Positions 7,717 to 27,671 of a stretch of 32,000 nucleotides of DNA are shown here, piece after piece. This DNA is from Acaryochloris thomasi RCC1774. Its GTDB lineage: Bacteria > Cyanobacteriota > Cyanobacteriia > Thermosynechococcales > Thermosynechococcaceae. The notes under the pieces were generated by a model that worked only from the letters and a program-made list of their open reading frames with translations, ran no database searches and was not told where the DNA came from. The stretch is from positions 90,001 through 122,000 of the forward strand of contig NZ_PQWO01000009.1 in the NCBI RefSeq assembly GCF_003231495.1, read 5' to 3'. Position 1 is the stretch's first letter. Every line of letters begins with the position of its first letter. The position numbers and the translations under genes are program-made.

Positions 7717-7746
7717 TGGTCCTCACATTTTTGACGATTTTATTTC

Positions 7747-7765
7747 GTTAATGAGAGTTATTATC
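7747..7765. promoter_or_regulatory. Candidate Fur box
   Basis: GTTAATGAGAGTTATTATC matches the classical 19-bp Fur consensus GATAATGATAATCATTATC at 15/19 positions. It lies 31-49 nt upstream of the start codon at 7716. Confidence 0.45.
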
Positions 7766-8438: not shown

Positions 8439-9096
8439 GGGTTAACCTCCCTCGTTCATATTGGTGACGATAGAGCAGCTCTAGCTGACCGCCATATTCC
8501 TGAATTAAAGCTAGCTCCTTCTGGTACATTCCCCGAAATGTATTGGCAAACATCAGCGTGACAATCGCAACCACCAAACCCGTGGCAGTCGAGATTAGAG
8601 CCTCGCTGATGCCTCCAGTTACGCCGGCCGTTTCACTTCCGCCAATATTACCCAGCGTCAGGGACGCAAATGAAGTGATTAAACCCGTCACCGTCCCCAG
8701 AAGACCCAGAAGTGGTGACACGCTAATAATGGTTTCAAACGCTGTACTAAATCGTTTCAGTGTCGGGATTTCAGCTTGTGCTTCACTCTCTAACGCCAGC
8801 CGGAACTCTTCCGGCGTTGGTGCATCCAAGTTCAATGCTGCTAGAAATATGCGAGCAATCGGTAGCTTGATGTTGTCTTTGATAACACCCATTGCTTCGT
8901 AGACATTGTCTAATCTGTAGAGCTTGAAGACCCTTTGAACGAGCTGCTCTTGCTGACGATTGGTCTTTAGCCAGAAAAATAGACGCTCTGCGATGAGTGC
9001 GATCGCAACCACCGAAAGTAGCATCAGGGGTATCATCACTACCCCACCCGCAAGGAAAAAGCGGCTGATTGTCATACCTGCACTCCTAGAATCCAT
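8422..9096 (-). CDS. exbB: MotA/TolQ/ExbB proton-channel protein
   Basis: 224-aa ORF with three TM segments and the conserved C-terminal core LLGLLGTVTGLI..F......GG.....GGISEALISTATGL. Confidence 0.9.
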   Translation of the reverse strand: MDSRSAGMTISRFFLAGGVVMIPLMLLSVVAIALIAERLFFWLKTNRQQEQLVQRVFKLYRLDNVYEAMGVIKDNIKLPIARIFLAALNLDAPTPEEFRLALESEAQAEIPTLKRFSTAFETIISVSPLLGLLGTVTGLITSFASLTLGNIGGSETAGVTGGISEALISTATGLVVAIVTLMFANTFRGMYQKELALIQEYGGQLELLYRHQYERGRLTHAATR

Positions 9097-9185
9097 ATCA
9101 AATCAGCTCACGCCCGTCTTACATAAGCAACAACAGCCCGCCAACTGAAGATTTTAGGGCAGCCTGAGCAGGGCGCAAACTATCG

Positions 9186-9204
9186 GTAAATGATACTACT
9201 TATC
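9186..9204. promoter_or_regulatory. Candidate Fur box in the exbB / tonB-like divergent intergenic region
   Basis: GTAAATGATACTACTTATC matches GATAATGATAATCATTATC at 14/19 positions. It lies in the 306-bp AT-rich spacer between divergent starts at 9096 (-) and 9403 (+). Confidence 0.35.
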
Positions 9205-9402
9205 AACAACAAGAGAAATATGCATTGACTAGAATTCATGATATTTTTCACTGACGCTCGGCTCCACAGTCGCATAAAACCTTTAAAACAAAGGCTTGAA
9301 AGGAGCTGCTTGCATCAGCGTTGAGTACTGATACAATTTATTCGATTGTCATTTAGTGCTGAACTTTGTATGATCTGTACTAATAATATTTGCTAACAGA
9401 AT

Positions 9403-11193: not shown

Positions 11194-11269
11194 TCCTAGA
11201 TCTAAATCTTGCGTTGAGCATCCTTTGAGAAAAAAGAAAGCAACTTACTCGTTGAGGTATCAATGCCAC

Positions 11270-11640
11270 TGCAGCGATTCGGATACAAAGGGAAAGTCTG
11301 AGTCAACAAATTGCCTCAGCCAAAGCTGGAATCTTCACTCGTACGGCTCGTCGCATCGAAGCGTATACATCGTCCCCGCTGGGGACGTTCTCATAATTGG
11401 CAAACACGCCCAGGTCCACTGGATAGTTTATGGAAAAAGGAACTCAAGCCAATGCTTGAAGCAGAACCGTGTCTAGAGGCAACGACTCTATTTGAGACCG
11501 ATCCTCCAGGAGCCGTTTTACCCCCAGCGTTTCGACGACGGCCTTAGAACTGTGTAACGGCGGATATCGAAATGAAAAGTGACCCATGGTAAACCCAAAG
11601 GAGTGATGTTTGAGATCCGCTATGGTATTGCCTTTGGTGT
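11270..11640 (+). pseudogene. Decayed transposase N-terminal remnant (HTH plus linker of a DDE/rve-type transposase; family not assignable by eye)
   Basis: Transposase-like peptides are spread over three frames and interrupted by stops. They read LSQQIASAKAGIFTRTARRIEA (HTH-like), then RSHNWQTRPGPLDSLWKKELKPMLEAEPCLEATTLFE, then LRTV*RRISK*KVTHGKPKGVMFEIRYG. No intact ORF and no catalytic core are present. Confidence 0.4.
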
Positions 11641-11691
11641 GGTGCTATCTCCGTTAAGTTGTCAGTATCGGCAGGCCTGTTACGCTCTCAG

Positions 11692-12783
11692 TCAGTTTTG
11701 TTTGACAAGCTCGCAGACGCGATATTGCGGTACAGGAATCATCTCTATTTGTACGTTTCGTTCCTTTGCTGATTTAGAAGCGGTGAGAACAGTCCCATAC
11801 TCTTCAACTCTGACCCTGTACTGTCGCTCAATACCGTCAGCATCTTGATACTGAATCTTTACATCAGCCCACTTTGCATCGTCGGTCCATTTCTCCAACC
11901 ACATTTGTAGAAGCTGAATCGGAAGATAGCGCAGAAGTGAATATAAAGGTCGCTTTATGCCCGGCAACCCTTTTCGCTGGAGTCGGCCTGTTCTGGGATA
12001 GGTTAACCACTGCCATCCTTCCTGCATCCAGACTTCACGCTCAGCAATTTGCTCAAATTTGCCTAAACCTGACCAGCCCCGATAGAAGGGACGCATGTTA
12101 TGAATTGGACCTTCTCGGTGGATTAGGGAGGGCAGAATTTCATCTTCGAGGTGTCCCCAGAGCTGTCCTGTGGGTAAGTCTAATAGGGTTGGCGCGAATT
12201 TATGGCCGCCGAAGTGAGTGCTTTTCCAAACTCGCAATGACTCACTATTTGCAAAGTTTTGACGAAGCTTCCGGTATAGTGGAGTCCCAAATCGACCACA
12301 GGCCAAATCAACCTGAGTGTGGGTGCAGATCAGAATATCCCGGAGATGTTGGGTGGGCTGCAGATATTGATCAAATTCAGGTAGCGTATTCGCTTTCCCC
12401 ATTAAATGATCGAGAAGGGCTATGGCTAAGTGTGGGGTCTCAGAATCTGGGACTAGGTAGTCCTGCTTCTCGTATTGAGCAAAGTACGTCTGGGGTCGCC
12501 GATAGTAAATGATGCGGGTATAGCCAGGGCAGGAATATTCGGGGTCAGATGAGATCGCAACTGGCCTCAACTTAATCCCGTGCCGCAGAATCAGTTTCTT
12601 TAACAGAGGCAATAGCTGACTAATCAATGGATGCGTGGCAAACATCTCACGGGGCCAAGGCTGCGGAATTTCCATGACCAGCCAGTGATCTGCAGTCCCC
12701 GCCGTGCCAATGGGATCTTCACCATTCGCCTTAGAGACCAAGGAACAGTATCGGCAATCATTGAATAATTCTGTTGTGCCCAT
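11692..12783 (-). CDS. Sucrase/ferredoxin-like (thioredoxin-like [2Fe-2S], Apd1/Aim32-type) protein
   Basis: 363-aa ORF with the family N-terminus (CRYCS...GEDPIGTAGTADHWLVMEIPQPWP). It has a CX8C motif (CTHTQVDLAC, aa 153-162) and an HX3H motif (HFGGH, aa 190-194). Confidence 0.8.
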   Translation of the reverse strand: MGTTELFNDCRYCSLVSKANGEDPIGTAGTADHWLVMEIPQPWPREMFATHPLISQLLPLLKKLILRHGIKLRPVAISSDPEYSCPGYTRIIYYRRPQTYFAQYEKQDYLVPDSETPHLAIALLDHLMGKANTLPEFDQYLQPTQHLRDILICTHTQVDLACGRFGTPLYRKLRQNFANSESLRVWKSTHFGGHKFAPTLLDLPTGQLWGHLEDEILPSLIHREGPIHNMRPFYRGWSGLGKFEQIAEREVWMQEGWQWLTYPRTGRLQRKGLPGIKRPLYSLLRYLPIQLLQMWLEKWTDDAKWADVKIQYQDADGIERQYRVRVEEYGTVLTASKSAKERNVQIEMIPVPQYRVCELVKQN

Positions 12784-12956: not shown

Positions 12957-15068
12957 TTAGCCGAAGATTGACTCTTCAATCACAAAGTTGTCGGCTGTCA
13001 GCGGATCGCTGCCGTTGAGGATAGCAAATGCACCCCCATCACCAAAACCAGCTTCTGCACCATTTGTGTCATAAAACAGAGTCGTAGAGTCAGCACCAAA
13101 GATGATGCGTGCTCCGGTGGTGTCGGCATCACCAAATGAATCTACAACAGTGAAATCGGTGGCATCGCTGAAGCCTACACCTACATCACTTGTCAAAGCA
13201 GCAAAAGTTTCCGCTCCTAGTGAGATAGTGTCTTCTGCTACAGAGAACCCGCTAACGATATCTACACCTAGGTCCGCAAACGTCTGCTCACCAAAAGTGA
13301 AGAAACCAATCGTATCGCTATCTGCACCACCGATGACCAGATCATCACCAGTATTGCCAATGATGCGATCATCACCAGCGCCCCCCAAGATGGTGTCATC
13401 ATCAGCACCACCGAACAGGAGAATATCATTCCCAGCACCAGCGCTGATAACGTCTAGGCCGTCAGAACCATTAACGATATCGGCACCATTTCCAGTTTGA
13501 ATGACATCATCACCAGCACCGGCTAGGACAACATCGTCGCCGTTACCGCCAGTAATACTGTCATTGCCAGCATTACCTTGGAGGGAGTCGTCACCATTGC
13601 CGCCAGAAATCTGATCATCACCTTCAGCACCGGCTGCGATGTCATTTCCATTGCCGCCTTCAAGAATGACGCCTTCGCCACCTTCACCACCTTCACCACC
13701 TTCACCACCTTCACCGCCTTCGCCGCCAAAGCCACCGAAGAGATCTAGCTCACCAGCGAGTAAGAGATCATCACCACTACCACCTCTGATAGTGTCATTA
13801 CCTCCAGCGCCAGCAATAACATCATCACCGCGACCACCGTCTAAGAGATCGTCTCGGGTACTTCCCAAAAGAGTATCGTCGCCGCGACCACCAAAGGCCT
13901 CACCACCTTCAGTACTAACGGGACCGCCTTCACCAGCTTCACCGCCTTCGCCAGCTTCACCGCCTTCACCAGCTTCACCGCCTTCACCAGCTTCACCGCC
14001 TTCACCAGCTTCACCGCCTTCACCAGCTTCGCCGCCTTCGCTATCCGAAACTGACAGTTCAACGGTACTGTTTGCCGGATCGACGTCGTAAAGCTCACCA
14101 TCCTCAATAAAGAAATCTATGGTTTCAGTACCCTCGTCAATTCCATCTTCTAACAGCCTGAGAGTGAGGCTAGCGCCAGGCTCTGTTAGAGTCAGTTCGA
14201 TGTTGCTAGAAGAGAAGCCAGGTGGTCCAGCGAAGCCTTCCGGAGTTTCGGAGAGAATTGCCGGATCAAAGTCCAATGTATCCTGAGCAATATTAGAACT
14301 TCCAATAGCAATGGGGAGACCTTCTGGGGGAATATCGCCTTCAACATTGAAAGTAAAAGTGACTTCTTCACCTTCCGTAACCTCGGCAATATCGGCGGTG
14401 ATTCCAACTACCGGACCAGCTTCGCCGCCTTCGCCGCCTTCACCGCCTTCGCCGCCTTCACCGCCTTCACCGCCTTCACCGCCTTCACCGCCTTCGCCGC
14501 CTTCGCCGCCTTCACCGCCTAGCTCTATACTGTCAATCGCGATCACATCATCGCCACTACCACCTCTCAAGGTGTCATTTCCACGAGAGCCTTCAATGGT
14601 ATCGTTGCCACTTCCACCCTGGATGAAATCATTTCTACCACCACCAGTGACAACGTCGTCGCCAGCGCCTGCATTAATCGTATCTCCAGGGCGATCACTG
14701 CCACCAGACCCAGAAGAACGCCTGCCGCCAAAAATCACATCATCACCTGCTCCGGTCGTGATTGTATCTTGACCACGTCCTCCTTCAACAATGTCGTTCC
14801 CTCTGCCGCCACGAATTCGGTCATCGCCTCTGCCGCCATTAAGGATGTCATCACCATTTCCACCAACAAGCGTGTCATCCCCCTCATTGCCAGCCAAAAT
14901 ATCATTCCCACCAAGACCATTGATGAGATCGTTGCCCTCAGTACCGTTGAGGATGTCGTCTAATACAGTTCCATTAATCGTCATCGCTTCAATGCTCGAT
15001 AAATTTACATTTGAGGCTAAATTCTTTTCCCCACGAGAATCGTACAGTCGATCGCGCCTTATTGACAA
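12957..15068 (-). CDS. RTX-type calcium-binding exoprotein with (GGE)n/(GEGGEA)n tracts and a Calx-beta-like central domain
   Basis: 703-aa ORF with many hemolysin-type nonapeptide repeats (GGNGDDILNGGRGDDRIRGGRGNDIVEGGRGQDTI; GGNGDDVVLAGAGDDVIQTGNGADIV). It has three acidic Gly-Glu tracts and no Cys. The C-terminus resembles a T1SS-type signal region (...FAILNGSDPLTADNFVIEESIFG). Confidence 0.85.
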   Translation of the reverse strand: MSIRRDRLYDSRGEKNLASNVNLSSIEAMTINGTVLDDILNGTEGNDLINGLGGNDILAGNEGDDTLVGGNGDDILNGGRGDDRIRGGRGNDIVEGGRGQDTITTGAGDDVIFGGRRSSGSGGSDRPGDTINAGAGDDVVTGGGRNDFIQGGSGNDTIEGSRGNDTLRGGSGDDVIAIDSIELGGEGGEGGEGGEGGEGGEGGEGGEGGEGGEGGEAGPVVGITADIAEVTEGEEVTFTFNVEGDIPPEGLPIAIGSSNIAQDTLDFDPAILSETPEGFAGPPGFSSSNIELTLTEPGASLTLRLLEDGIDEGTETIDFFIEDGELYDVDPANSTVELSVSDSEGGEAGEGGEAGEGGEAGEGGEAGEGGEAGEGGEAGEGGPVSTEGGEAFGGRGDDTLLGSTRDDLLDGGRGDDVIAGAGGNDTIRGGSGDDLLLAGELDLFGGFGGEGGEGGEGGEGGEGGEGVILEGGNGNDIAAGAEGDDQISGGNGDDSLQGNAGNDSITGGNGDDVVLAGAGDDVIQTGNGADIVNGSDGLDVISAGAGNDILLFGGADDDTILGGAGDDRIIGNTGDDLVIGGADSDTIGFFTFGEQTFADLGVDIVSGFSVAEDTISLGAETFAALTSDVGVGFSDATDFTVVDSFGDADTTGARIIFGADSTTLFYDTNGAEAGFGDGGAFAILNGSDPLTADNFVIEESIFG
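13671..13737 (-). repeat. 9-bp in-frame microsatellite-like tract encoding (GGE)6
   Basis: The plus strand reads GCCTTCACC-type 9-mers repeated. The protein reads FGGEGGEGGEGGEGGEGGEG. Confidence 0.9.
13924..14040 (-). repeat. 18-bp in-frame tandem repeat encoding (GEGGEA)6
   Basis: The plus strand reads CACCGCCTTCACCAGCTT repeated about 6 times. The protein reads EGGEAGEGGEAGEGGEAGEGGEAGEGGEAGEGGEAGEGG. Confidence 0.9.
14418..14520 (-). repeat. 9-bp in-frame tract encoding (GGE)11
   Basis: The plus strand reads GCCGCCTTC / ACCGCCTTC 9-mers. The protein reads LGGEGGEGGEGGEGGEGGEGGEGGEGGEGGEGGEAG. Confidence 0.9.
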
Positions 15069-16296: not shown

Positions 16297-19200
16297 CTAA
16301 ATGACGGAGAAGTCGTCGGGCAAGGTAGCAACGTCTGAGACATCAGGCACAGTAACAAACTGATCTGCCGTCAGATTCTCAGCATCAACTCCAATCAAGC
16401 GGGCGAGAGTTTCACCTGTTTCTGTGACGCCTAGCGTTGTGATAAACCCATTTTGAGAAATATCGAGATCAGAGAAGGCTAATTCTCCGTCAACTAGGCC
16501 AATAAAGTCGGTGCCAGTGGTGAAGTCAAAGACAGTGTCTGTGCCGTCGCCGTTGCCAAAGACAAAGGTATCTTGGCCTCGACCACCGATGAGAATATCG
16601 TCGCCGGTCACACCCATCAGCACATCATTGCCACGTCCTCCGATAATGACATCACGATTGGCATCGCCACTGAGAACATCGTTGCCTTTACCTCCGATTA
16701 GAGTGTCATTATTTTCTCCGCCAGAGATGCGATCGTTCCCGTTTTGTCCCAGCAATACATCTCGGCCACGATTGCCATAAATCAGATCATTGCCTGAGCC
16801 ACCGAAGACTCGGTCGCTACCAGCTCCACCATGAATCTGATCGCTGCCTCCCTTAGCGATGATCAGGTCTTTGCTTCCTAGGCCTTTGATCGTATCGTCT
16901 CCATCAGTTCCTCTAAGGAAATCTCTACCCCCTGTTCCTACAATGTCAGGTGCAGCTCCGCCATCGTCAAGAACACTGACTGAAACCACCGCCGTATCTG
17001 TCCCGCCATTACCATCGCTGACATCGTAGGTGAAGCTATCATCACCGACAAAGCCATCATTGGGCGTGTAGGTCACAGTGCCATCGTCATTGAGAGCGGT
17101 TGTGCCGCTAGTGGCATCACCGACGGCATCAACCGTAATCGGATCTCCGTCAGGATCGGTGTCATTGGCAAGAACATTGACGATTGCTGCAACACCCGCA
17201 TCAGTCGTAACTGAATCATCAACCGCATCAGGGTTGCCGTTGGGGGCAATCACATCACTGACGGTGACATTGACTGTGGCGGTATCAGTGCCACCTTGGC
17301 CATCACTAACGTCATAGGTGAAGCTATCATCACCAACAAAGCCGTCATTAGGCGTGTAGGTCACAGTGCCGTCATCGTTGAGGGCCGCTATGCCACTAGT
17401 GGCGTCACCGACAGCATCAACAACAACCGCGCCGCCATCAGAGTCGGTGTCATTGGCAAGAACATCGATGATTGCTGCAACACCCGCATCAGTGGTGGCT
17501 GAATCATCGACCGCGTCAGGAGGAATGTTGGGAACAACCACTTCATTGACCGTGACGTTGACCGTGGCGGTATCGGTACCACCTTGACCATCGCTAACGT
17601 CATAGGTAAAGCTATCGTCACCAACAAATCCGTCATTGGGCGTGTAAGTAACGGTGCCGTCGTCGTTGAGAGCCGTTGTACCGCTGGTGGCATCACCGAC
17701 GGCATCGACAACAACGGTGCCACCATCGGAGTCGGTGTCATTAGCAAGCACATTGATGGTCGCTGCAACACCGGCGTCAGTAGTGGCAGTATCGTTCACC
17801 GCGTCAGGATCAACGTTGGGAACAACCACTTCATTGACCGTGACGTTGACCGTGGCGGTATCGGTACCACCTTGGCCATCGCTAACGTCATAGGTAAAGC
17901 TGTCGTCACCAACAAAACCATCATCGGGCGTGTAGGTTACGGTACCGTCATCATTGAGAGCCGTTGTGCCACTAGTGGGATCACCGACGGCATCGACAAC
18001 AACGGTGCCACCATCGGAGTCGGTGTCATTGGCGAGGACGTTAATAGTTGCCGCTTCACCAGCATTCGTCGTGGCGGTATCGTTCACCGCGTCAGGATCA
18101 ATGTTAGGAACAATTACTTCATTGACCGTGACGTTCACCGTGGCGGTATCAGTACCACCTTGGCCATCGCTAACGTCATAGGTAAAGCTGTCGTCACCAA
18201 CAAAACCATCATCGGGCGTGTAGGTTACAGTACCGTCATCGTTGAGAGCCGTTGTACCGCTGGTGGCATCACCGACGGCATCAACAACAACCGTGCCGCC
18301 ATCTGAATCGGTGTCATTGGCGAGTACGTTAATAGTTGCTGCAACACCGGCGTCAGTGGTGGCAGTATCGTTCACCGCGTCAGGGTCGACGTTGGGAACA
18401 ATTACTTCATTGACAGTAACGGTGACTGTGGCAGTATCAGTACCACCTTGTCCATCACTGATGTCATAGGTAAAGCTATCATCGCCAACAAAGCCGTCAT
18501 TGGGCGTGTAGGTGACATTGCCATTAACCGTGATGGCTGTTGTACCGTTAGCGGCATCACCGACGGCATCAACAACAACCGTTCCGCCATCTGAATCGGT
18601 GTCATTTGCGAGCACATTAATAGTTGCAACTCCGCCAGCGTCAATGGTGGCAGAATCATTAACTGCATCAGGATCGACGTTGGGAACAACTACTTCGTTG
18701 ACGGTGACGTTCACTGTGGCGGTATCTGTGCCACCATTACCATCGGTAACGTCATAGGTGAAGCTATCATCACCAACAAAGCCATCGTCTGGCGTGTAGG
18801 TAACGGTGCCATCATCGTTGAGAGCCGTTGTACCGCTGGTGGCATCACCGACTGCATTGACGGAAAGGACATCGCCGGCATCCGCATCGGTGTCGTTGGC
18901 GAGCACGTTGATCCCCACTGCGGCACCGGCGTCTGTTGTGGCCGTGTCATTTACAGCATCGGGGGGAGTATTAACAGGCACAGGCTCTTCAAAGAAGGTG
19001 ACTGTCACACTGTCAGAACCTGGTGCCAGGGTGGCGTCGTTTGCTCCTCCGTCGATAATCTCAAATGAGAATGAGAGGGTCTCATTTTCGCCTTCAACAT
19101 CTTGAGGGAATGCTTCTGCTCGTCCTTCGTTATCATCCACATTCGCTGTGGGAATGGTGATATTGGCTCCACTTCCGGTGACGCCGAATTCTACGAACTC

Positions 19201-19977
19201 AAATTCTGAGCCGAAGATGCTGGCGGGGTTAATCGTGACACCACTCGGTACATTACCTAAAAGACTGAAGCGCGTTAGACCAGCGACTCCTTCAGAACTT
19301 GTAAATCGAATAATGGGCGGATCCGTTGGATCGATAGGGTCGTCAGAGGTAAAGGTGATGACAAAGGGTGTTTCTTCACTCTCAACAAGGTCAGTTGTAT
19401 TGACGCTAACGGTAATCACAAAATGACCTGTGTAATTTTGCTGCAGTTCCTGGGAGAAGATGAATGCAGCTTGAGGCGTTCCTACTTGAACGTCTAACTC
19501 CCAATGAGCTTCTAAGTTAGTCCGACCAATACTTTGACTAGAGGCTGAGATATTCGCCCCAGTGAGTTGATGCAACTGCTGTAGAAACAGATGGCCCGTG
19601 GCTCCCTTTGCAACTTGACAGCCATATATGTGCAGGTCAGCTCCCTTGAGCACTTGCGACCAGCTTTTTATCTGCTCAAGATGTTGCTCAAGAGTCTCGA
19701 AACTAAGCTCGGTGTTCCCGAGCTGAAGACGCCCGGCTGAGCCGTGGGAAACAAGGTGCAAGTCAATGGGGCGGTCGTAATGTTCTAGGGCTGCAGAAAT
19801 TTGTGAGATACCGTCTTGGTCTGGCCTGAGAACAACAACGTGAGAATGGGGGCTTACGTCGTCTAACAGCATCTGAAGCTGATCAACGTTGGAGTCTACG
19901 ATAACCAGCGTCTGTTTGAGGGCTGGGCGTTGCAGATCGTTGCGATCGCACGATTGAAGCAAAGTAGTTGAATGCAT
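16297..19977 (-). CDS. Large DUF4347-headed, cadherin-like-repeat, RTX calcium-binding exoprotein (putative T1SS adhesin)
   Basis: 1226-aa ORF. The N-terminal DUF4347-like region reads LVIVDSNVDQ...LHLVSHGSAGRLQLG...LHIYGCQVA. A Calx-beta-like segment follows. Then come 7 repeats of about 96 aa (PDAVNDTATTDAG...INVLANDTDSDGG...TYTPNDGFVGDDSFTYDVSDGQGGTDTATVNVTV). RTX nonapeptides (GGSGNDLIYGNRGRDVLLGQNGNDRISGGENNDTLIGGKGNDVL) and a C-terminal secretion-type tail close the protein. Confidence 0.9.
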   Translation of the reverse strand: MHSTTLLQSCDRNDLQRPALKQTLVIVDSNVDQLQMLLDDVSPHSHVVVLRPDQDGISQISAALEHYDRPIDLHLVSHGSAGRLQLGNTELSFETLEQHLEQIKSWSQVLKGADLHIYGCQVAKGATGHLFLQQLHQLTGANISASSQSIGRTNLEAHWELDVQVGTPQAAFIFSQELQQNYTGHFVITVSVNTTDLVESEETPFVITFTSDDPIDPTDPPIIRFTSSEGVAGLTRFSLLGNVPSGVTINPASIFGSEFEFVEFGVTGSGANITIPTANVDDNEGRAEAFPQDVEGENETLSFSFEIIDGGANDATLAPGSDSVTVTFFEEPVPVNTPPDAVNDTATTDAGAAVGINVLANDTDADAGDVLSVNAVGDATSGTTALNDDGTVTYTPDDGFVGDDSFTYDVTDGNGGTDTATVNVTVNEVVVPNVDPDAVNDSATIDAGGVATINVLANDTDSDGGTVVVDAVGDAANGTTAITVNGNVTYTPNDGFVGDDSFTYDISDGQGGTDTATVTVTVNEVIVPNVDPDAVNDTATTDAGVAATINVLANDTDSDGGTVVVDAVGDATSGTTALNDDGTVTYTPDDGFVGDDSFTYDVSDGQGGTDTATVNVTVNEVIVPNIDPDAVNDTATTNAGEAATINVLANDTDSDGGTVVVDAVGDPTSGTTALNDDGTVTYTPDDGFVGDDSFTYDVSDGQGGTDTATVNVTVNEVVVPNVDPDAVNDTATTDAGVAATINVLANDTDSDGGTVVVDAVGDATSGTTALNDDGTVTYTPNDGFVGDDSFTYDVSDGQGGTDTATVNVTVNEVVVPNIPPDAVDDSATTDAGVAAIIDVLANDTDSDGGAVVVDAVGDATSGIAALNDDGTVTYTPNDGFVGDDSFTYDVSDGQGGTDTATVNVTVSDVIAPNGNPDAVDDSVTTDAGVAAIVNVLANDTDPDGDPITVDAVGDATSGTTALNDDGTVTYTPNDGFVGDDSFTYDVSDGNGGTDTAVVSVSVLDDGGAAPDIVGTGGRDFLRGTDGDDTIKGLGSKDLIIAKGGSDQIHGGAGSDRVFGGSGNDLIYGNRGRDVLLGQNGNDRISGGENNDTLIGGKGNDVLSGDANRDVIIGGRGNDVLMGVTGDDILIGGRGQDTFVFGNGDGTDTVFDFTTGTDFIGLVDGELAFSDLDISQNGFITTLGVTETGETLARLIGVDAENLTADQFVTVPDVSDVATLPDDFSVI
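16966..18966 (-). repeat. Seven tandem 288-bp (96-97 codon) coding repeats
   Basis: The protein repeats span aa 338-1004. Copies 3-5 differ by only a few residues. The periodicity also shows as a ladder of similar plus-strand shadow ORFs spaced 288 nt apart (17078, 17366, 17654, 17954, 18242, 18512, 18806). Confidence 0.9.
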
Positions 19978-20683
19978 CTTATGATTTTGACCTCAAACTA
20001 TTTCCAATTGGAGAATTGAACAAAAAAACAGAGAAAATATTAATGAGCATCAGAAATTCTGCCTCTTGAAATGCAGATATTCCATGCTTACCTAAAGCGA
20101 AAATCCAGAAATTAATAGCAGAGACTAGAGTAATTCCTTTAGAAGAGGGAGCATCTCCAAGCAAATAAATATCTCTAGTGAATGTTTATCTTTAAGAGAA
20201 GTTAGCGTCCAATTCAGATGACTAGCACTAACCATTCTTTATAGGAAAACTCACTCAATGAGGCCTCTTACTATTGAGTAAATCCACAAAGATTTAGCTT
20301 AGCGATTGGCACGGTTTTTAATTTGCACCTGTATATTCTTATACCAGACTATTGAATAGTATTCTCATTTAAATTCAGGTAGCCTAGATCACGTTTTCCC
20401 CAAAAATACTTTGAATAAAGGACTGCAGAAGATATAGAGGTCGGCCTATTATCAGAAGATTTTATTATTTAGTTGAAAAATTTCTTAGTAATACAGGCGC
20501 TGCCTATTATTTTCATCAAAAAGATAGCTTCTGCTTATGGAATAACACCCGACAAATAAATTGCATCTTACTGCGAGCATGAATTTCAGAATACGGGCAT
20601 CTGATCCGGTGGCTTAATCAAAGCTTTTTCTTGATCGTAATTTATGTTGATTTCATTGGCTTTCTATGTGCCAATACCAACAT

Positions 20684-21931
20684 TCAGTCTTTGATAAGTT
20701 GATTGAATATATCGACGGCCTGGGCTACGCCATTCTCAGCTTTAATTCTTTGACTAAGGCGAACGGCTCGTTCTTTAAATGGTTGATGGTTAATCGCTGC
20801 AGAAATAGATTTAGATAGGGCGTCAGCCGTTAGTTTATTCTGTCGGATTGGAGCAGGGCCAATGCCGAGCTTTTGGATGCGATCGCCCCAAAAAGGCTGA
20901 TCGGCAACAAATGGGGTGATAATCGTTGGCACGCCTGCCCTTAAGCTCGCTGCCGTTGTCCCTGAGCCGCCGTGATGAACAACTGCGGCCATCTGTGGGA
21001 ATAACCAATCATGGGAAACCGAATCAACTATGTATACATCTTTCGGTAGGTCTGTTTGACGCAAGCTACCCCAACCTGTGAGCAAAATGCCGCGTTGGTT
21101 TGATAAAGATAGTGCTTTGATTGCCAACTGGGTCAGTGCTGCGGGGCTTTGGCTTTTCATGCTGCCAAAGCCGATGTAAACAGGCGGTGGTCCTGCGGCA
21201 AGAAACTCTATCAGCTCTGCAGGAGGTTGCCAGTTCGACTGCTCTAAAACCCAGTACCCAGTCACATACCAGGAGTCGGGCCAGTCATGGGGTTTGGGGA
21301 CAACGGCATCACTGAAGCCAAACAACTGAGCTTTTTGATACTGCAACTGACGCCATGAGCGAGCGGGTGAAATTTGTAGATTTGCCTGCAGCCAATCTTT
21401 AACCGGAGGAGTCAGCGTTTGTCTTGAAATCTGCTTGACAACTTTATACGTCAATAAGTTGTACATCCCTCCGAGCTTGATGCCAGGCGGGATGACGGGG
21501 CTAGGGAACTCGCGTGTGATGCCAACCGGCTGAATTTTGGCGAGGAAGTGAGGAATTTGTAGCTTTTCGCCAAATGAAGCGCCGCCAAAGCTGAGAGGCG
21601 AATAAATCAAGGCGTCTGCCCCCTGACAGGCTTGCCATGAGTCATGAAGCTGCTGCTCAATAAAGGGTCGCATCAGTTTCCCGTAGAGGCGGATAAACTG
21701 AACGGGGTTTGACCCTTTTTTCATAATGTCTGCGCCAACTTCGCTGCCCAGCACCTGCTTAACATCTACCTCTAGAGGGTGGAACTCCAGAGCATGGGCA
21801 CCCACAAATTCAGAGAACGTCTTACTGCTGGCAACTCGGACCTGATGACCGGCAGCTTTTAAGCCTAGTCCCAGAGCAACGTAGGGCTGCACATCCCCTC
21901 GTGTTCCAGTGGCTAAAATTGTGACTTTCAT
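20684..21931 (-). CDS. GT1-family (MGT / sterol-glucosyltransferase-like) glycosyltransferase
   Basis: 415-aa ORF. The N-terminus MKVTILATGTRGDVQPYVALGLGLKAAGHQV is typical of the GT28-N/UDPGT type. The C-terminal nucleotide-sugar motif reads VVHHGGSGTTAASLRAGVPTIITPFVADQPFWG. Confidence 0.85.
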   Translation of the reverse strand: MKVTILATGTRGDVQPYVALGLGLKAAGHQVRVASSKTFSEFVGAHALEFHPLEVDVKQVLGSEVGADIMKKGSNPVQFIRLYGKLMRPFIEQQLHDSWQACQGADALIYSPLSFGGASFGEKLQIPHFLAKIQPVGITREFPSPVIPPGIKLGGMYNLLTYKVVKQISRQTLTPPVKDWLQANLQISPARSWRQLQYQKAQLFGFSDAVVPKPHDWPDSWYVTGYWVLEQSNWQPPAELIEFLAAGPPPVYIGFGSMKSQSPAALTQLAIKALSLSNQRGILLTGWGSLRQTDLPKDVYIVDSVSHDWLFPQMAAVVHHGGSGTTAASLRAGVPTIITPFVADQPFWGDRIQKLGIGPAPIRQNKLTADALSKSISAAINHQPFKERAVRLSQRIKAENGVAQAVDIFNQLIKD

Positions 21932-21961
21932 GAATGCCTTGCAAACATCTGAAAGAGTGCG

Positions 21962-22519
21962 TTAGGCAGCGTACTTTTGCCTTTGCCTGCGGACCAGAAA
22001 CATCAAACCTAAAATTGCAGCAGAACCTAGAACTGTGCTGGGTTCAGGGACAGAGGTATAGCTGATCTCTCCTGTTCCTTCAAGCTGAGTCACGGAACCA
22101 TCGCTGACGGTCGTTGTGTCATAGGTAAATAGGGACAGCTCTCCACTGGAGGGAGCTGGCGCAAAGGACAGGAAGGTGAAATCGGTCGGACCTGTTGTTT
22201 CTGCGGCATAATTTAGCCCGAGGAGCTGGTTGTCAGAGAAAACCGCTTCTGGACCCGCGACTGCATTGGCTTCAGAAAAATTTGTGCCGAGGAAGTCGAA
22301 GGACAGATTGGATACGGGTGCAAATTCATCTCCCGAGCCGGTGAGTCCAGAGTCGTCAAAATCGAAGGAACCAGAGAAACTCTCGCCGGATAGATCGCCC
22401 GTGACGTTATCAATACTAAAGGAGAGAGAAGCTGCGCGAGCCGCAGGAGCCGCAAGGGCTGTGGCAGAAATGGCTAAGCCAATGGCAAGGGAGAATGTAG
22501 GGTTCATAGAGATATCCAT
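21962..22519 (-). CDS. PEP-CTERM sorting-domain secreted protein
   Basis: 185-aa ORF with a signal peptide (LAISATALAAPAARA). The C-terminal VPEPSTVLGSAAILGLMFLVRRQRQ gives PEP, a TM segment and a basic tail. Confidence 0.85.
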   Translation of the reverse strand: MDISMNPTFSLAIGLAISATALAAPAARAASLSFSIDNVTGDLSGESFSGSFDFDDSGLTGSGDEFAPVSNLSFDFLGTNFSEANAVAGPEAVFSDNQLLGLNYAAETTGPTDFTFLSFAPAPSSGELSLFTYDTTTVSDGSVTQLEGTGEISYTSVPEPSTVLGSAAILGLMFLVRRQRQKYAA

Positions 22520-22792: not shown

Positions 22793-23371
22793 CTAATGAT
22801 CATGCATATAGAGAACTTCTATACAAATAGGCAGTGAGCAGCCTTGATCAAACTCGCAACCTGCTGCGATGCCTGCGGTCACAATCTGCGAAGCTGAGGC
22901 GTTTTGTGCATAGGCTGCATGCATGGCCCCAAGGGCATATTGGCGGCCACTGCCGACGCTCCAGTACTGCCGATACTCGTTGACTTCTCTGAGCTTGCTG
23001 ATTTCAAAGAGACCGTGAGGATTCACGATGATGGCGTTGAACTGGCTGGATTCGACGGGCTGCTTATTATCACTGGTCTTGGTGTTGAGGAAGTAGTCTT
23101 TTTTCATGATCGAATGGAGTTCGAGCAGGGTTGAGTAAATCTCCATGCGATTTGAGAGTTGAAACCGGTCGGGATGCTTGAGAATGAGGTGATCCACCAT
23201 GTCAGAGAGGGTATTCCAGCCGACAATGCCGATGATGCTGTCGTTAACTTTGTGCAGTTTGTTGGCATTGGCGATGTGGGTTGATGTAGCGATGGTGGAG
23301 CCAAAACTGATTTGGGTATCACATGCGATCGCAACCTCTCCATTCTTAATCGCAGCGCAAACAACCGACAT
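22793..23371 (-). CDS. Proteasome/HslV-fold Ntn-hydrolase-like protein (Ser at the nucleophile position)
   Basis: 192-aa ORF that aligns by eye along its full length with HslV. [24 protein letters not shown] matches [35 protein letters not shown] matches [28 protein letters not shown] matches IAIGSGGPYAQAAARA. Residue 2 is Ser, which would be exposed after Met removal. Confidence 0.6.
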   Translation of the reverse strand: [192 protein letters not shown]

Positions 23372-23386
23372 ATATAGTTCTCCTGA

Positions 23387-23818
23387 TCATGAGTGAGATT
23401 TTTCAGTCGCAAAGAGTTGGGCCATATCTCTAAAGGCTTTGAACTCAAGGGCATTGCCGGAAGGATCGCGGAAAAACATCGTGGCCTGTTCCCCTGGCTG
23501 CCCTTCAAAACGAATGTAGGGTTCGATTTCAAACTGCACTCCGGCCTGAAGGAGGCGATCTCGTAATTGTTTCCAGTCCTCTAGCGTCAGTACCACCCCA
23601 AAGTGAGGAACCGGGACAGCGTGGCCATCGACGGGGTTCGAGTGAGCCTCAGCCTTGGGACTTAAATGAGCCACAATTTGGTGGCCGTAGAGATTGAAAT
23701 CAACCCAGTTTTTGGCACTACGGCCTTCGGGGCAGTTTAGGAGGCCGCCATAAAAATCTCGGGCGGTCTTAAGATCGTGGACAGGGAAAGCGATATGAAA
23801 GGGACGGAGTTCGTGCAT
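23387..23818 (-). CDS. VOC-family (glyoxalase/bleomycin-resistance/dioxygenase fold) protein
   Basis: 143-aa ORF with the typical VOC start [23 protein letters not shown] and C-terminal [12 protein letters not shown]. It starts 5 nt after the devC stop. Confidence 0.8.
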
Positions 23819-23823
23819 TGGGG

Positions 23824-25047
23824 TTAGAAAATATCGGCAGGATCAGCTTTTTTGAGTTTGCGAACTGCGATCGCACCTGCCGAGCTGCACATTAGAAAGG
23901 TCAACAAGAAAACCTGCAGCATCACATCAGGGCGCAGCACCAGCGGAATCTTTGTCAGGTAGCTGAGCAAACTATAGACGCCCACCGAAGCGGCTGTGCC
24001 AGGAATGAAGCCTAGAACTGCCAGCAGCATTGCTTCCTGCAGAACCACCATCAACAAGGCGCGATCAGCATAGCCCATCGCTTTGAGCGTGGCATATTCG
24101 GGCAGATGTTCGGCAACATCGGTGTATAAAACTTGGTATACAACAATCACCCCGACAATGAACCCCATCAACGCCCCGAAATTAAGGACAATGCCGCTAG
24201 GGTCAGACTCCCAGTAGGTCTTCTCCTTTATGATTAGCTCTTCGCGGGTAAACACTGAAACCGATGCAGGCAAATTCGCCTGCAACTGTCGCTGCACCTG
24301 GATTGGGTCAGAACCAGGCGCAAGTACCAGCAACCCTAAGCTCACGTCACGGAGGCGATCTTGACCGTAGCGCTGGGCATAGTTCCAGTCACTCATGATC
24401 ACGTGCCCCTTGGTGAACAAGGTGCTGCCAAGCTGAAAGTCACCGATCACTGAGACTCGACGCTGATCCATGACCGTGCGGACCTGATCCTGCTGGGCCA
24501 GTCGTTCTGAAATCGGTCCGAGGGAGGGCTGCGATAACCGATCAAAAAGAACGGTATCCGGTTCGCTTAGACGATTGAGCTGTTGATTCACTCCCGGTAA
24601 TTTAAAGACTGGCTGTGCTGGATTAAAGGCCAGTATTTTGACCTCATCAGGGAAAATAGAGTCGTCGGCTGGGTCAGTTGTTGATTTGCCGATTTTCTCT
24701 GGACTGACCCAGTTGGCCTCAGCGATATATAGCGGTCTGGCTGAGCGAACCCCAGCAACTGCATTCGCTTGATACAGGTAAACACGCGGGAAGGTGGAAC
24801 GTCCTAGGGCGCGAGTATAGGTCGAAATCATAAACAGCTCACCCTCTAGCTGTTCGTGGATCAGCGTAATCCCGTCAAAGAGGACCGCCCTCAAACCCAG
24901 TTGAGTGAACATGAGAATATTGGCAAAGCCAACCCCCGTGATCGCAATCACCAGCTTGACTTTTTGGTGGGTCAACTGCGCCCAGGCTAGATTGACTCTA
25001 GAGGATGCTAGCTTGAATGGCAGGGAAAAGCGCCGCTTCGGCTTCAT
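23824..25047 (-). CDS. devC: DevC-family ABC exporter permease (FtsX-like)
   Basis: 407-aa ORF. The N-terminus [32 protein letters not shown] matches DevC. A large periplasmic loop and a C-terminal FtsX-type 3-TM bundle follow. The start overlaps the devB stop (ATGA). Confidence 0.85.
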
Positions 25048-26225
25048 GGGCGATCTGACGCTAAAGCAATCGTGACGCGAACTTGCATATTCGTTAGGCC
25101 AGAGACCTTCTCATTATCGTCAGGATCAATACGAATGCTGACGTTGACAACCCTGGCATTATCATCAGTGGTGGGATTAGTCTCATCTGCCGCAATGGTG
25201 GGCTGGCCAATCTGGAGAGCAACCGTTTCTATCTGCCCTTGAATCTCACCCGCAAAGCCACCATATTCACTAATCATCGTGGCCTGTTGACCTTCGCTCA
25301 CCTTGGCTAAATCCGTCTCATAGACCTCGGCCTGCACGTACATTTGCTGGGTGCGACCCAACTCAACAATCCCGAGCTGCGTGTTGACCTGCTCACCAAC
25401 CTTCGTATTAATCCGCAGAATCTGGCCCCCGATGGGCGCTCTGACCTGAGTGTCTTCTAGATCCGCTTGGCGCTGTTCCACCTCAATCAAAGCCTGCTGT
25501 AGTTCAGCTTGGGCAATGGAAACATCGACGGGGCGCACCTGCTGCAGATCGGCGAGTCGAGCCTTTTCTTCTCTGATTTGAGCATTGAGCGTCGTGTCGA
25601 TTTTCTCTAGGGCAGCCTGTCGAGCGGCCACGGTCGCCTGAGCCGTTTCAAAATCCTGTCGGGCTGCTTCCAGCTCTGCTTTGTTAATGGCTCCTTCTTG
25701 CAAAAGCATCTGGCGTCGCCCGTAGGCTAAAGAGGCTTCTTGAAGCGTTGATTGGGCACTGGCAAGCTCTGCCTGTAGCTGTTTGCGCTCTGCCGGAAGC
25801 TGCACGTTAAGTCGTTCAATAACGGCCTGCTGAGCTGAGATCGCCCCCGGTTTTGCATCTGTCTGCTTTGCTTTCTTTAATCGGGCCTGCAGAAGTGAGA
25901 CGTTGGCGCGAGCAGCCTTGAGGTCTGCTAAACGACGGTCAGCCCCCTGCAGGATAGCAATCACCTGATTGGCCTGGACGCGATCTCCTTCTTTCACCAT
26001 AATCCGGTTAACGCGGCTGTCTTCAGCATTGGGAACAGAGAGCTTAATCACATCCCACTGAGGAATAATCTTGCCCCGCGCTACAACTGCTGTAGGAGCT
26101 TTGACCTCTTGGGCCTTAGTGGGCGGCTCTTTGAGTTGACCACAGCTAAAGATAAGAGGACTTAAGCCAATGGTCAACAATCCGATGGCTTTGAGAGGGA
26201 TGGGTAAGAAGGACAAAGGCAACAT
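25044..26225 (-). CDS. devB: DevB-family HlyD-type membrane fusion / periplasmic adaptor protein
   Basis: 393-aa ORF with an N-terminal anchor, a lipoyl-like segment (VARGKIIPQ...VKEGDRVQANQVIAIL), a long coiled-coil hairpin and a beta-barrel C-terminus. Confidence 0.85.
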   Translation of the reverse strand: MLPLSFLPIPLKAIGLLTIGLSPLIFSCGQLKEPPTKAQEVKAPTAVVARGKIIPQWDVIKLSVPNAEDSRVNRIMVKEGDRVQANQVIAILQGADRRLADLKAARANVSLLQARLKKAKQTDAKPGAISAQQAVIERLNVQLPAERKQLQAELASAQSTLQEASLAYGRRQMLLQEGAINKAELEAARQDFETAQATVAARQAALEKIDTTLNAQIREEKARLADLQQVRPVDVSIAQAELQQALIEVEQRQADLEDTQVRAPIGGQILRINTKVGEQVNTQLGIVELGRTQQMYVQAEVYETDLAKVSEGQQATMISEYGGFAGEIQGQIETVALQIGQPTIAADETNPTTDDNARVVNVSIRIDPDDNEKVSGLTNMQVRVTIALASDRP

Positions 26226-26226
26226 G

Positions 26227-27003
26227 CTAATGTTTCAGACCCTCGGGGCACAGGGCTTGGGCACAAAGTTCAGCAAGCGGTGGTTCAGCTCCCTGTAGGA
26301 AAAAGTGGTCGCCAGGAAACATGCGGAGGTTGAATTGTTCGCTGGTTTCAATCTGCCAATCCTCCAGCGTTGCAGGAGGTGCAACCGAATCGGCGAAGCT
26401 GCCTAGTGCAGTAATGGGAAAGGGAAGAGGAGCTTGAGGGTGGTACTCGTATGTTTCTAGTAGCTTAAAGTCTGCTCGAAGCGTAGGCAATAGAATCTGC
26501 ATGAGTTCTGGATGCTGTAGTATTGCTTCTGGCGTCCCTGCATAATGACGAAGTTCAGCAATAAATTGTTCGTCAGATACAGTGTGAATGGCGGGAGCCG
26601 TTGGCGGCAGGCTGGGGGCAGAGCGACCTGAGACGAAGAGGTGTTGCGGTAGAGGGGACTGATGCGATCGCAACCACCGCGCTAACTCAAAACTAATCAA
26701 AGCCCCCATACTGTGCCCAAAGAAAGCAAAAGGCCGATTTAAGTGGGGCAAAAGTGCTGCGCCTAGGTCTGCAATGAGGGACGGTAGAGTTTGGAACGGA
26801 CTTTCATTAAACCGCTGTCCTCGCCCCGGCAGTTCAACAGGACAAAGCTGGATTTGAGGTGATAAATGAGTCTGCCAGGATCGATACATTGCAGAACTTC
26901 CCCCGGCATAGGGGAAGCAAAAGAGATGAGCAACTCCTGGGCGGAGCATTTCAGGAAACCAGGGCTGCAGCTTCTTCGGTTCTGCTTTAATCATGGTTGT
27001 CAT
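26227..27003 (-). CDS. Type II thioesterase (NRPS/PKS editing TE)
   Basis: 258-aa ORF with LFCFPYAGGSSAMYRSW, the GHSMGA nucleophile elbow and a C-terminal FPGDHFF. Confidence 0.9.
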   Translation of the reverse strand: MTTMIKAEPKKLQPWFPEMLRPGVAHLFCFPYAGGSSAMYRSWQTHLSPQIQLCPVELPGRGQRFNESPFQTLPSLIADLGAALLPHLNRPFAFFGHSMGALISFELARWLRSHQSPLPQHLFVSGRSAPSLPPTAPAIHTVSDEQFIAELRHYAGTPEAILQHPELMQILLPTLRADFKLLETYEYHPQAPLPFPITALGSFADSVAPPATLEDWQIETSEQFNLRMFPGDHFFLQGAEPPLAELCAQALCPEGLKH

Positions 27004-27134
27004 GGGGTTTTTGGGAGATGCCTACATAGAATCGGATGTCTTTATCGTTGAGTTTTTGCTGTTTGTGCAGGCTAAGATAAAAAGGCCATACCACGGTACT
27101 TTGCAAGCGGTGTTGATTAACGGAGCAGCTACAC

Positions 27135-27401
27135 ATGCCTCAAGCGACTGTCAGTCAAGAAGAGTTTGGTGCAATTAGAGAGAACGTTCGCCATAACGAG
27201 AAAGCCATTGATGAGGTAAAAGTTGACCTCAAAGCATTCCGAGCTGAAACACAGGCGGAATTTAAAGACGTTCGAGAAGAACTCAAATCCCTCTCTGATA
27301 AAGTCGATGCCCTGGCACAGAGATTCGATGGATTAGGCTGGAAAGCATTACTTGGAATTGTGATCATTGTTGCGGCTAACGTTGCACTTAAGTATTTGTA
27401 G
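27135..27401 (+). CDS. Small tail-anchored coiled-coil protein, function unknown
   Basis: 88-aa ORF with GGAG 9 nt upstream of the ATG. It has an amphipathic, charged coiled-coil-like N-part and a single C-terminal TM (WKALLGIVIIVAANVALKYL). It is the only plus-strand gene inside the minus-strand NRPS locus. Confidence 0.5.
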   Translation: MPQATVSQEEFGAIRENVRHNEKAIDEVKVDLKAFRAETQAEFKDVREELKSLSDKVDALAQRFDGLGWKALLGIVIIVAANVALKYL

Positions 27402-27413
27402 ACTGAAATTACA

Positions 27414-27671
27414 CTACTGAATAGATCGCTCAGAGGTCTGAGCTTTCATTTTTTTCCGCAGGCTCAAAGGGCGCATATCGGTCCAGGTTTTTTCGATATG
27501 GTCGAGACAGGCTTGTTTATTGCCGCTGAAGCCTGCATCTTTCCAGCCCAGAGCGTTTTCTCGCTCTTCGGGCCAAATTGAATATTGTTCTTCATGGTTA
27601 ATGACAACCTTATAGCGTTGAGTCTCGTTGGCTTCCTCTGAATACATGAAACGTTCCTTGGTGTACATCAA
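27414..27671 (-). CDS. mbtH: MbtH-like protein
   Basis: Signature motifs are present: [10 protein letters not shown]...GW...G....[17 protein letters not shown]. The true start may be the ATG at 27668, or the ATG at 27647, which has an AAGGAA Shine-Dalgarno-like sequence upstream. Confidence 0.9.

Follow-up and report, generated by a model that had tools for sequence, protein, structure and literature searches.

A devA-less devBC gene pair between a type II thioesterase gene and an apparently separable VOC-BPH pair in a putative siderophore locus of Acaryochloris thomasi RCC1774

How can a DevBC-type exporter work when the gene for its ATPase is missing, and do the genes found in place of devA belong to the pump? 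These questions are raised by a run of five genes in Acaryochloris thomasi RCC1774 (contig NZ_PQWO01000009.1, positions 90,001 to 122,000; this stretch of 32 kb, analyzed over its whole length, is referred to as the window). All five reside on the minus strand and encode, in the order of transcription, a type II thioesterase (TEII), the membrane fusion protein DevB, the permease DevC, a protein of the VOC fold and a proteasome homologue of the BPH family, which belongs to the N-terminal nucleophile (Ntn) hydrolases (Table 1). Judged by gene order in related genomes, the five genes are three separable parts, TEII, devB-devC and VOC-BPH, and no single functional module. We consider it rather likely that TEII serves a neighboring nonribosomal peptide synthetase (NRPS), that DevBC exports a siderophore with the help of a DevA-type ATPase acting in trans and an unlinked TolC-type channel, and that VOC and BPH are independent of the pump, cytoplasmic and stress-linked and merely share the transcript.

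The coordinates and junctions that the initial annotation had given for the five packed genes match our list of open reading frames (ORFs) and the sequence exactly. Along the run, the junctions measure 1, -4, 5 and 15 nt. The TAG stop codon of the TEII gene is separated from the ATG of devB by a single nucleotide (c), the stop of devB and the start of devC overlap as ATGA (25044-25047), the TAA of devC is followed after 5 nt (cccca) by the ATG of the VOC gene, and 15 nt containing an AGGAG motif lie between the TGA of the VOC gene and the ATG of the BPH gene. The family assignments made at the outset (TEII, DevB, DevC, PF00903 and PF00227) all proved to lie above thresholds, including the Pfam thresholds for the VOC protein (PF00903) and the Ntn protein (PF00227). 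We infer that the run is co-transcribed; a scan for promoters and terminators between positions 22300 and 27800 remained at chance level and speaks neither for nor against this, and an Rfam scan of the window gave no match.

An ATP-binding cassette (ABC) ATPase is lacking throughout the window, be it intact or as a remnant, and the agreement of three tests makes this result robust. When all six frames were scanned for Walker A and ABC-signature motifs, none was found in a relevant open frame; matches were confined to frames of at most 64 codons or to an RTX-repeat protein. A phmmer search with DevA from Acaryochloris marina against the ORFs of the window with at least 50 aa yielded no match at E<=1e-5, and a tblastn search of the window with CctJ, the DevA homologue of the cyanochelin system, remained blank at E<=1e-3, which also excludes a devA pseudogene remnant in the window. 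The absence of an ABC ATPase, noted from the start on inspection of the ORFs, is thus borne out by motif scan, phmmer and tblastn alike, and the same is true for the presence of devBC without adjacent devA. A DevA subunit encoded in the same operon, as found in DevBCA-type ABC exporters, is missing and the VOC gene starts just 5 nt past the devC stop.

The identity of the two remaining subunits is clear. DevB matches TIGR02971 over its full length with 248.7 bits (cut-off 129), DevC reaches 350.6 bits with TIGR01185 (cut-off 290.35), and the C-terminal FtsX domain of DevC is recognized as PF02687 at 8.4e-17. Both the DevB and the DevC subunit of a DevBCA-type exporter are therefore present according to NCBIfam and Pfam. 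The closest homologues of DevC are encoded in metagenome-assembled genome (MAG) GCA_039814705.1 (locus L052, 97% identity), which is represented here by a contig of 6.2 kb only, and at loci L054 and L055 (89% identity). L052 likewise lacks devA. Downstream of devB-devC, L054/L055 carry an SRPBCC gene and cellulose-synthase-like genes in convergent orientation, and there is neither devA nor VOC-BPH nor an NRPS gene. In every DevC relative with 50-68% identity and enough readable downstream sequence, A. marina included (L056-L064, L066, L067), devA follows directly after devC. It is also present at six of the seven annotated devBC loci on cyanobacterial plasmids. The exception (L083) resides on a plasmid of Nostoc flagelliforme (NZ_CP024793.1, 673931-681070), where devA is absent, an L-lactate dehydrogenase gene comes after devC, and the break of devB into two parts hints at decay. 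A scan of metagenomes with DevC returned 15 loci, the closest with 57% identity. One metagenomic contig (L065) carries an mbtH gene (2-265) and, about 1.2 kb further downstream, a devB-devC pair (1490-4072) with 51% identity to that of the window, which makes it another NRPS-linked devBC. It extends just 294 nt past devC, and devA of the likely orthologue L064 begins about 270 nt downstream, so that L065 is counted neither with the DevA-less nor with the DevA-bearing loci.

Has devA simply been lost from an operon on its way to decay? Relative to L054, the ratio of nonsynonymous to synonymous substitutions (dN/dS) amounts to 0.048 for devC, at a dS of 1.25, and to 0.062 for devB. Overall, it varies between 0.048 and 0.065 over a dS span of 0.12-1.25, in three assemblies and two genomic contexts. 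Values as low as this (around 0.05) imply that the pair is kept by selection, and devBC without DevA is under strong purifying selection. Of 149 columns with a conservation of at least 90%, DevC of the window deviates at 7, mostly by conservative substitutions, so that nearly all highly conserved positions are kept, and devB and devC are both full length. All this argues against devBC as a decaying, non-working remnant of devBCA. The DevA-less plasmid locus of N. flagelliforme with its fragmented devB documents that such decay happens; for the window, we regard it as very unlikely.

A DevBC pair that dispenses with ATP altogether, i.e., a passive or proton-driven conduit and thus a MacB-type transporter of a novel class, has nothing in its favor except that no ATPase gene adjoins devBC in three assemblies. 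The sequence of DevC speaks against such a conduit, since the coupling helix that contacts the nucleotide-binding domain is conserved: the cytoplasmic segment between transmembrane helices 2 and 3 is 85% identical to the family consensus. To our knowledge, all characterized permeases of the FtsX/MacB type are driven by a cytoplasmic nucleotide-binding domain. As components of ABC systems are moreover commonly encoded at separate loci (PMC6161253; CctI is a further case), operation without an ATPase is highly improbable, even more so than decay.

We favor an ATPase acting in trans: neither gene is disrupted, purifying selection acts on both, DevC has kept its coupling helix and the literature provides precedents. 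A pump borrowing its ATPase from elsewhere was one of the two options offered by the initial annotation and it is the one that fits best; the other, a variant module for export, maturation or immunity, suffers from the separability of VOC-BPH outlined below. In the mechanism we propose, a two-gene devB-devC unit, already without devA, would have been inserted between the TEII gene and the gene following it. DevC would dimerize in the inner membrane and DevB would bridge it to an outer-membrane channel of the TolC/HgdD type, yielding a tripartite pump of the MacAB/DevBCA kind. A nucleotide-binding protein of the DevA type, whose gene would lie elsewhere in the genome, would hydrolyze ATP; in the simplest case, it would come from a paralogous devBCA operon. 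The siderophore, or a precursor or recycled form of it, could then be expelled over the outer membrane, as has been suggested for CctGHJ in the case of cyanochelin B. Among systems in which DevC shares 38-46% identity with DevC of the window, identities between DevA proteins amount to 63-69%. Cross-pairing with a paralogous DevA is thus plausible, and such a protein could plausibly serve DevC of the window.

Several points weigh against this proposal. The 29 cytoplasmic residues at the N-terminus of DevC agree with the consensus at only 38% of positions compared to 45-76% in canonical members. The window holds neither a candidate for the trans-acting ATPase nor a gene of the TolC/HgdD type. 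HgdD is usually unlinked. The siderophore is put forward as the substrate from gene position only. The junctions flanking devBC are very tight (1 and 5 nt), which is unusual for a recent insertion, and a repeated precise loss of devBC in relatives is disfavored by no more than a neighbor-joining tree calculated without bootstrap. Furthermore, the cyanochelin cluster of Phormidesmis works without DevBCA (bioRxiv 10.64898/2026.07.30.741596), and pumps of this kind may therefore be accessory or serve another substrate.

The last point leads to the possibility that DevBC, again with an ATPase in trans, exports something other than a siderophore, for example a glycolipid or lipid connected with the PEP-CTERM and glycosyltransferase genes further downstream, or drugs or toxins in general, and that its position next to an NRPS is an accident of insertion. 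The founding members of the family, DevBCA and HgdBC, handle heterocyst glycolipids (PMC6161253), the order TEII-devB-devC-VOC-BPH-PEP-CTERM-glycosyltransferase is kept in L052, the 89%-identical devBC pairs of L054/L055 are found beside SRPBCC and cellulose-synthase-like genes and away from any NRPS, and the cyanochelin cluster of Phormidesmis needs no DevBCA. On the other hand, CctG and CctH from a siderophore system are the best annotated plasmid matches of DevB and DevC, the independent metagenomic contig L065 also carries mbtH upstream of devBC, and the start of devB 1 nt past the TEII stop argues for expression together with an NRPS accessory gene. Taken together, we think another substrate unlikely, and export of a siderophore driven by a borrowed ATPase remains the reading that we prefer.

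What, then, is the role of the two genes that occupy the place of devA? The initial annotation had noted the VOC and Ntn proteins in this position and offered, as one of two options, a variant module for export, maturation or immunity. The distribution of the genes is at odds with that view. An intact VOC gene directly upstream of the BPH gene is found in the window and at five other distinct cyanobacterial loci (eight loci in all). Three of them (L001, L002/3 and L006) exhibit the arrangement NRPS-TauD-NRPS-MbtH-TEII-VOC-BPH, i.e., the pair follows TEII and devBC is absent. At L004/5, an HSP70-like gene precedes VOC-BPH and there is no NRPS nearby, and at L053 VOC-BPH stands alone beside a Pcb/IsiA-like gene, again without NRPS. 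Conversely, L054/L055 contain devBC and no VOC-BPH. As the pair can follow TEII where devBC is absent and also exists at loci that have no NRPS, it is separable and no substitute for DevA. Co-occurrence of a devC-VOC-Ntn triplet across cyanobacteria had been suggested as a check: the triplet, and likewise the complete order from TEII through devB-devC-VOC-BPH to the PEP-CTERM and glycosyltransferase genes, was found only in the window and the 97%-identical MAG L052. This VOC gene was not detected near BPH genes at about 40 loci from Proteobacteria, Acidobacteriota, Verrucomicrobiota and others, nor at a distant locus from Leptolyngbyaceae. On the basis of these neighborhoods, VOC-BPH is an independent conserved pair of Acaryochloris-like cyanobacteria and no part of the pump. 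In a neighbor-joining tree of BPH (no bootstrap), the window and L052 are nested inside the TEII-VOC-BPH clade. By parsimony, this would indicate that devBC was inserted between TEII and VOC in this lineage, a conclusion that we take as indicative only.

Nevertheless, the five genes could form one dedicated module, in which the NRPS product is processed by VOC and BPH, for instance to mature, deacylate or detoxify it or to protect the producer, and is then exported by DevBC. The presence of unusual genes in the place of devA would in that case carry a functional meaning. Such a module would be in line with the tight junctions (5 and 15 nt), with the AGGAG before the BPH gene and with four lineages in which VOC-BPH comes after TEII where an orthologous NRPS cluster ends. 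The VOC fold includes antibiotic-binding and resistance proteins, and TnmS1 as well as FosA/B are among the structural matches of the VOC protein. In addition, the Ntn acylases PvdQ and CcsQ mature lipo-siderophores, albeit as members of another Ntn family (bioRxiv 10.64898/2026.07.24.740629). These arguments are countered by the occurrence of VOC-BPH without NRPS at L004/5 and L053 and by the absence of devBC from most VOC-BPH loci. The VOC family is 70-77% identical across phyla and no NRPS gene lies beside the VOC gene in the two non-cyanobacterial genomes that we examined. BPH is devoid of a signal peptide and apparently cytoplasmic, whereas PvdQ and CcsQ are periplasmic. Finally, an uncultured cyanobacterium (L007) has retained a VOC remnant of 59 residues with an in-frame stop (6874-7050) next to an intact BPH gene (7125-7703), indicating that BPH has no strict need of VOC. 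A dedicated module thus has little probability, and tight packing of genes is no proof that they form a single functional module.

If VOC and BPH are no part of the export machinery, their neighborhoods may hint at the conditions under which they are used. Every VOC-BPH locus seen adjoins genes related to iron limitation, either a siderophore NRPS and a PiuC-like gene or genes for an IsiA/Pcb-like antenna, flavodoxin and a thioredoxin-reductase-like protein. At L004, the region next to VOC-BPH (6048-12548) comprises a thioredoxin-reductase-like gene, three genes of the IsiA/Pcb antenna type, one of them a PsaL fusion, and a gene for a long-chain flavodoxin, and looks like an iron-stress island. 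It is conceivable, though doubtful at present, that a Fos/glyoxalase-like metalloenzyme (VOC) and an ATP-independent peptidase of the Ser-1 type (BPH) act together as a module against iron starvation or oxidative stress. If true, such a module would provide the first functional partner and the first physiological condition for BPH. The pairing of VOC and BPH in iron-stress neighborhoods is the only new lead, and the association offers a cheap experimental entry to the function of BPH. Large RTX/cadherin-like repeat proteins also recur beside VOC-BPH (L007, 7839-9890; L053, 1335-2627 and 6204-8357).

The last protein of the run had been described as HslV-like at first. It turned out to be a BPH instead. 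Its sole matches in the PDB at E<=0.01 are 5OVU (Cm-BPH, 1.2e-33) and 5OVS (2.1e-26), while it stays far below the HslV equivalog cut-offs, with 25.6 bits for TIGR03692 (cut-off 157.75) and 26.6 bits for NF003964 (cut-off 137). HslV was ruled out on the grounds of these scores and of structural relatives that are exclusively BPH. The window contains no hslU and no AAA+ gene adjoining the BPH gene, and Cyanobacteria have been reported to lack HslV (PMC3235984). Residues S2, D18, K38, G51 and S141 are invariant or nearly so in two alignments (A1 and A2), one of which contains 37 homologues, and correspond to Thr/Ser-1, Asp-17, Lys-37, Gly-50 and Ser-139 of Td-BPH with the roles described for them (PMC5777263). 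BPH proteins from all groups other than the Betaproteobacteria, those of Cyanobacteria among them, are reported to be characterized by a serine nucleophile in position 1 (PMC5777263). We thus assign the Ntn protein to BPH on the basis of its sequence; a conceivable alternative is the neighboring cluster termed "CPH" (PMC8665760). The protein has no signal peptide and appears to be cytoplasmic. Two further roles were considered and rejected. A self-resistance copy of the target of a proteasome inhibitor does not agree with the reported lack of HslV in Cyanobacteria, with the siderophore hallmarks of the locus and with occurrence of the pair without NRPS, and a PvdQ-like deacylase belongs to a different Ntn family and is not compatible with the missing signal peptide. 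Published genomic contexts of BPH include argG, the betaproteobacterial pyruvate dehydrogenase operon and Hsp33 (PMC5777263). Several BPH-family records in NCBI (P0001, P0083 and P0087, among them the 97%-identical orthologue) bear the name "MFS transporter", which looks like a propagated mis-annotation.

The VOC protein reaches 38.2 bits with PF00903 (cut-off 20.6) and exhibits the paired beta-alpha-beta-beta-beta fold of the VOC superfamily. Its AlphaFold2 model (pLDDT 90.8) was compared with known structures using Foldseek, which returned 3RRI as the best match (E = 6e-13), followed by FosA/FosB/FosX and glyoxalase I, with TnmS1 also among the matches. In the alignment, H8, H72 and E125 are invariant. 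We take these residues to sit at the positions of the metal ligands in Fos enzymes, and due to this invariant His/His/Glu set the VOC protein is probably a metalloenzyme. It stays below all specific NCBIfam cut-offs (for FosA/FosB, the best score is 18.4 bits compared to a cut-off of 171), and the resemblance to FosA/FosB is limited to the fold and the metal ligands. The family is very large, with more than 8000 matches, and identities of 70-77% extend across Proteobacteria, Bacteroidota and Planctomycetota. Such conservation across phyla points at a conserved general function and indicates that the VOC protein is not a tailoring enzyme of a specific cluster. The VOC gene comes after sucA-sucB-lpd in Croceibacterium (L074, 5001-5420) and overlaps with a Usp gene in Roseimaritima (L075, 5001-5435), in both cases without an NRPS gene beside it. 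Both VOC and BPH are thus elsewhere linked to 2-oxoacid dehydrogenases or stress contexts (sucAB-lpd and Usp for the former, the pyruvate dehydrogenase operon for the latter).

Table 1. Features encoded in the window from Acaryochloris thomasi RCC1774. The five genes of the run are given first, in the order of transcription.
Feature	Position	Strand	Evidence
TEII, type II thioesterase (NRPS editing enzyme)	26227-27003	-	PF00975, 4.5e-50, 171.4 bits
devB, DevB-family membrane fusion protein (periplasmic adaptor)	25044-26225	-	TIGR02971
devC, permease of the FtsX/MacB type without fused ATPase	23824-25047	-	TIGR01185, PF02687
VOC-fold (glyoxalase/Fos-like) probable metalloenzyme, first gene of the VOC-BPH pair	23387-23818	-	PF00903
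BPH-family proteasome homologue (Ntn hydrolase) with Ser-1 nucleophile, second gene of the pair	22793-23371	-	PF00227, PDB 5OVU/5OVS
Siderophore-type NRPS, last synthetase of the cluster (C-A-PCP-C), ORF of 1419 aa	27715-31974	-	Domains of orthologues
MbtH-like protein	27414-27671	-	PF03621, 3.9e-21
Small, probably real gene on the opposite strand (88 aa, coiled coil and C-terminal hydrophobic helix)	27135-27401	+	Full-length homologues
PEP-CTERM protein and macrolide/Rgt-type glycosyltransferase	20684-22519	-	Located after BPH, gap of 274 nt
Large RTX/cadherin-like repeat proteins near the locus	12957-15068, 16297-19977	-	Hemolysin-type calcium-binding repeats
CctD-like Suc_Fer protein	11692-12783	-	PF06999, 46% identity to CctD
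Pro/Lys-rich ORF, putatively TonB-like	9403-11193	+	Position and composition only
ExbB	8422-9096	-	PF01618
ExbD	8037-8438	-	PF02472
AMIN-domain TonB-dependent receptor	3095-5725	-	PF00593, PF07715, PF11741, 26% identity to CctA
Periplasmic binding protein (siderophore uptake)	1897-3012	-	PF01497, 27% identity to CctB

The surroundings of the run (Table 1) provide the context for the proposed substrate. TEII is a stand-alone PF00975 protein that shows the motifs GHSMG (of the GxSxG type) and GDHFF and adjoins an NRPS and an MbtH-like protein, as is typical for type II thioesterases of NRPS and polyketide synthase clusters. Its gene also follows that for MbtH in L001, L002 and L006. From this arrangement, TEII is taken to belong to the NRPS-MbtH siderophore cluster. 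The orthologues of the NRPS in L001 and L002 possess a Condensation/AMP-binding/PP-binding/Condensation domain order and are preceded by a TauD hydroxylase. The NRPS ORF as listed begins at 31974, and the cluster seems to run past the end of the window. Besides the components for uptake listed in Table 1, the window contains two AraC regulators and a PiuC-like dioxygenase and, by gene content, is a siderophore locus.

Between mbtH and the TEII gene, a small gene is transcribed in the opposite direction. It is probably real because full-length homologues exist (79-106 aa, E down to 1.2e-21). At the equivalent site in L001 and L002 it is missing and MbtH and TEII are contiguous. As the plus-strand gene splits NRPS-MbtH from TEII, the five-gene run would need its own promoter, located in 27004-27134. 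We further observed that the periplasmic binding protein is accompanied by neither a FecCD-type permease nor a FecE-type ATPase in the window and that searches with CctE/F remained blank, pointing at an uptake ABC system that is also split, as reported for cyanochelin CctI. The order of the PEP-CTERM and glycosyltransferase genes is the same in L052. The G+C content drops to 0.39 at 20001-21000, compared to about 0.50 elsewhere, and this dip covers the intergenic DNA that separates the RTX-like gene from the glycosyltransferase gene.

For genome mining, these findings imply that DevBC pumps in cyanobacterial siderophore clusters can be incomplete on purpose and that a missing ATPase gene should not be equated with a broken or exotic transporter. 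Counting from hgdBC, this would be the second independent lineage that keeps DevBC without DevA under strong purifying selection, and the sharing of ATPases between paralogous pumps of the MacB type becomes a concrete, testable question.

A close parallel in gene content is HgdB-HgdC (All5347/All5346) from Anabaena sp. PCC 7120. Like the pair in the window, it consists of a DevB-like and a DevC-like protein and its cluster is "devoid of a gene encoding an ATPase"; DevA or another ATPase has been proposed to act in trans (PMC6161253). Its partner in the outer membrane is TolC/HgdD, a promiscuous protein that serves several pumps in Anabaena (PMC6161253). The two pairs differ in context, as hgdB-hgdC is located in the heterocyst glycolipid island and involved in the formation of the glycolipid layer, while the pair from A. 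thomasi is situated in an NRPS siderophore locus.

The best annotated plasmid match of DevC leads to a siderophore system, namely the cyanochelin B plasmid of Leptolyngbya sp. NIES-3755 (AP017310.1), which carries a cassette encoding CctA-CctH and CctJ. In blastp comparisons, DevB is 54% identical to CctG, DevC 46% to CctH and the Suc_Fer protein 46% to CctD. Both loci combine DevB/DevC and a siderophore cluster with an AMIN-domain TonB-dependent receptor, a binding protein and a CctD-like protein, although identities of the receptor and the binding protein to CctA and CctB amount to only about 26-27%. A difference is CctJ, the DevA homologue, which is encoded directly after CctH and is missing from the window, where tblastn searches with CctC (MFS), CctE/F (permeases) and CctJ gave no match at E<=1e-3. 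Of the components of a Cct-type cassette, the window thus contains receptor, binding protein, CctD-like and DevB/DevC-like proteins and lacks CctC, CctE/F and CctJ. Variation in these systems has been noted by others: the DevBCA-like CctGHJ is present in Leptolyngbya and missing from the cyanochelin cluster of Phormidesmis, the gene for the import ATPase CctI has a chromosomal location, and permeases as well as ATPase can be supplied in trans (bioRxiv 10.64898/2026.07.30.741596).

On a broader scale, DevBCA-HgdD of Anabaena and the proteobacterial systems MacAB-TolC and PvdRT-OpmQ share with the pair described here an adaptor protein and a four-helix permease of the FtsX type with a large periplasmic domain. 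PvdRT-OpmQ is an example of a siderophore exporter, its substrate being pyoverdine. MacB and PvdT carry permease and ATPase as a fusion, and for DevBCA the next gene encodes the ATPase, whereas neither is the case in the window. As regards the downstream pair, BPH resembles the structurally characterized BPH proteins (PDB 5OVS, 5OVT and 5OVU), with E = 1e-33 to Cm-BPH and with all catalytic residues including Ser-1. It differs from them in having a VOC-fold gene as its constant partner and a siderophore or isiA/flavodoxin locus as its neighborhood, and its pore-loop segment is less acidic than that of Cm-BPH in the alignment. The VOC protein has the fold in common with 3RRI, a protein of unknown function from Alicyclobacillus, and with FosA/FosB/FosX, the identity to Fos proteins being only about 20%. 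For the exporter, both elements have a precedent, DevBC in a siderophore cluster in the cyanochelin cassette and DevBC without DevA in HgdBC, and their combination in A. thomasi is a new instance.

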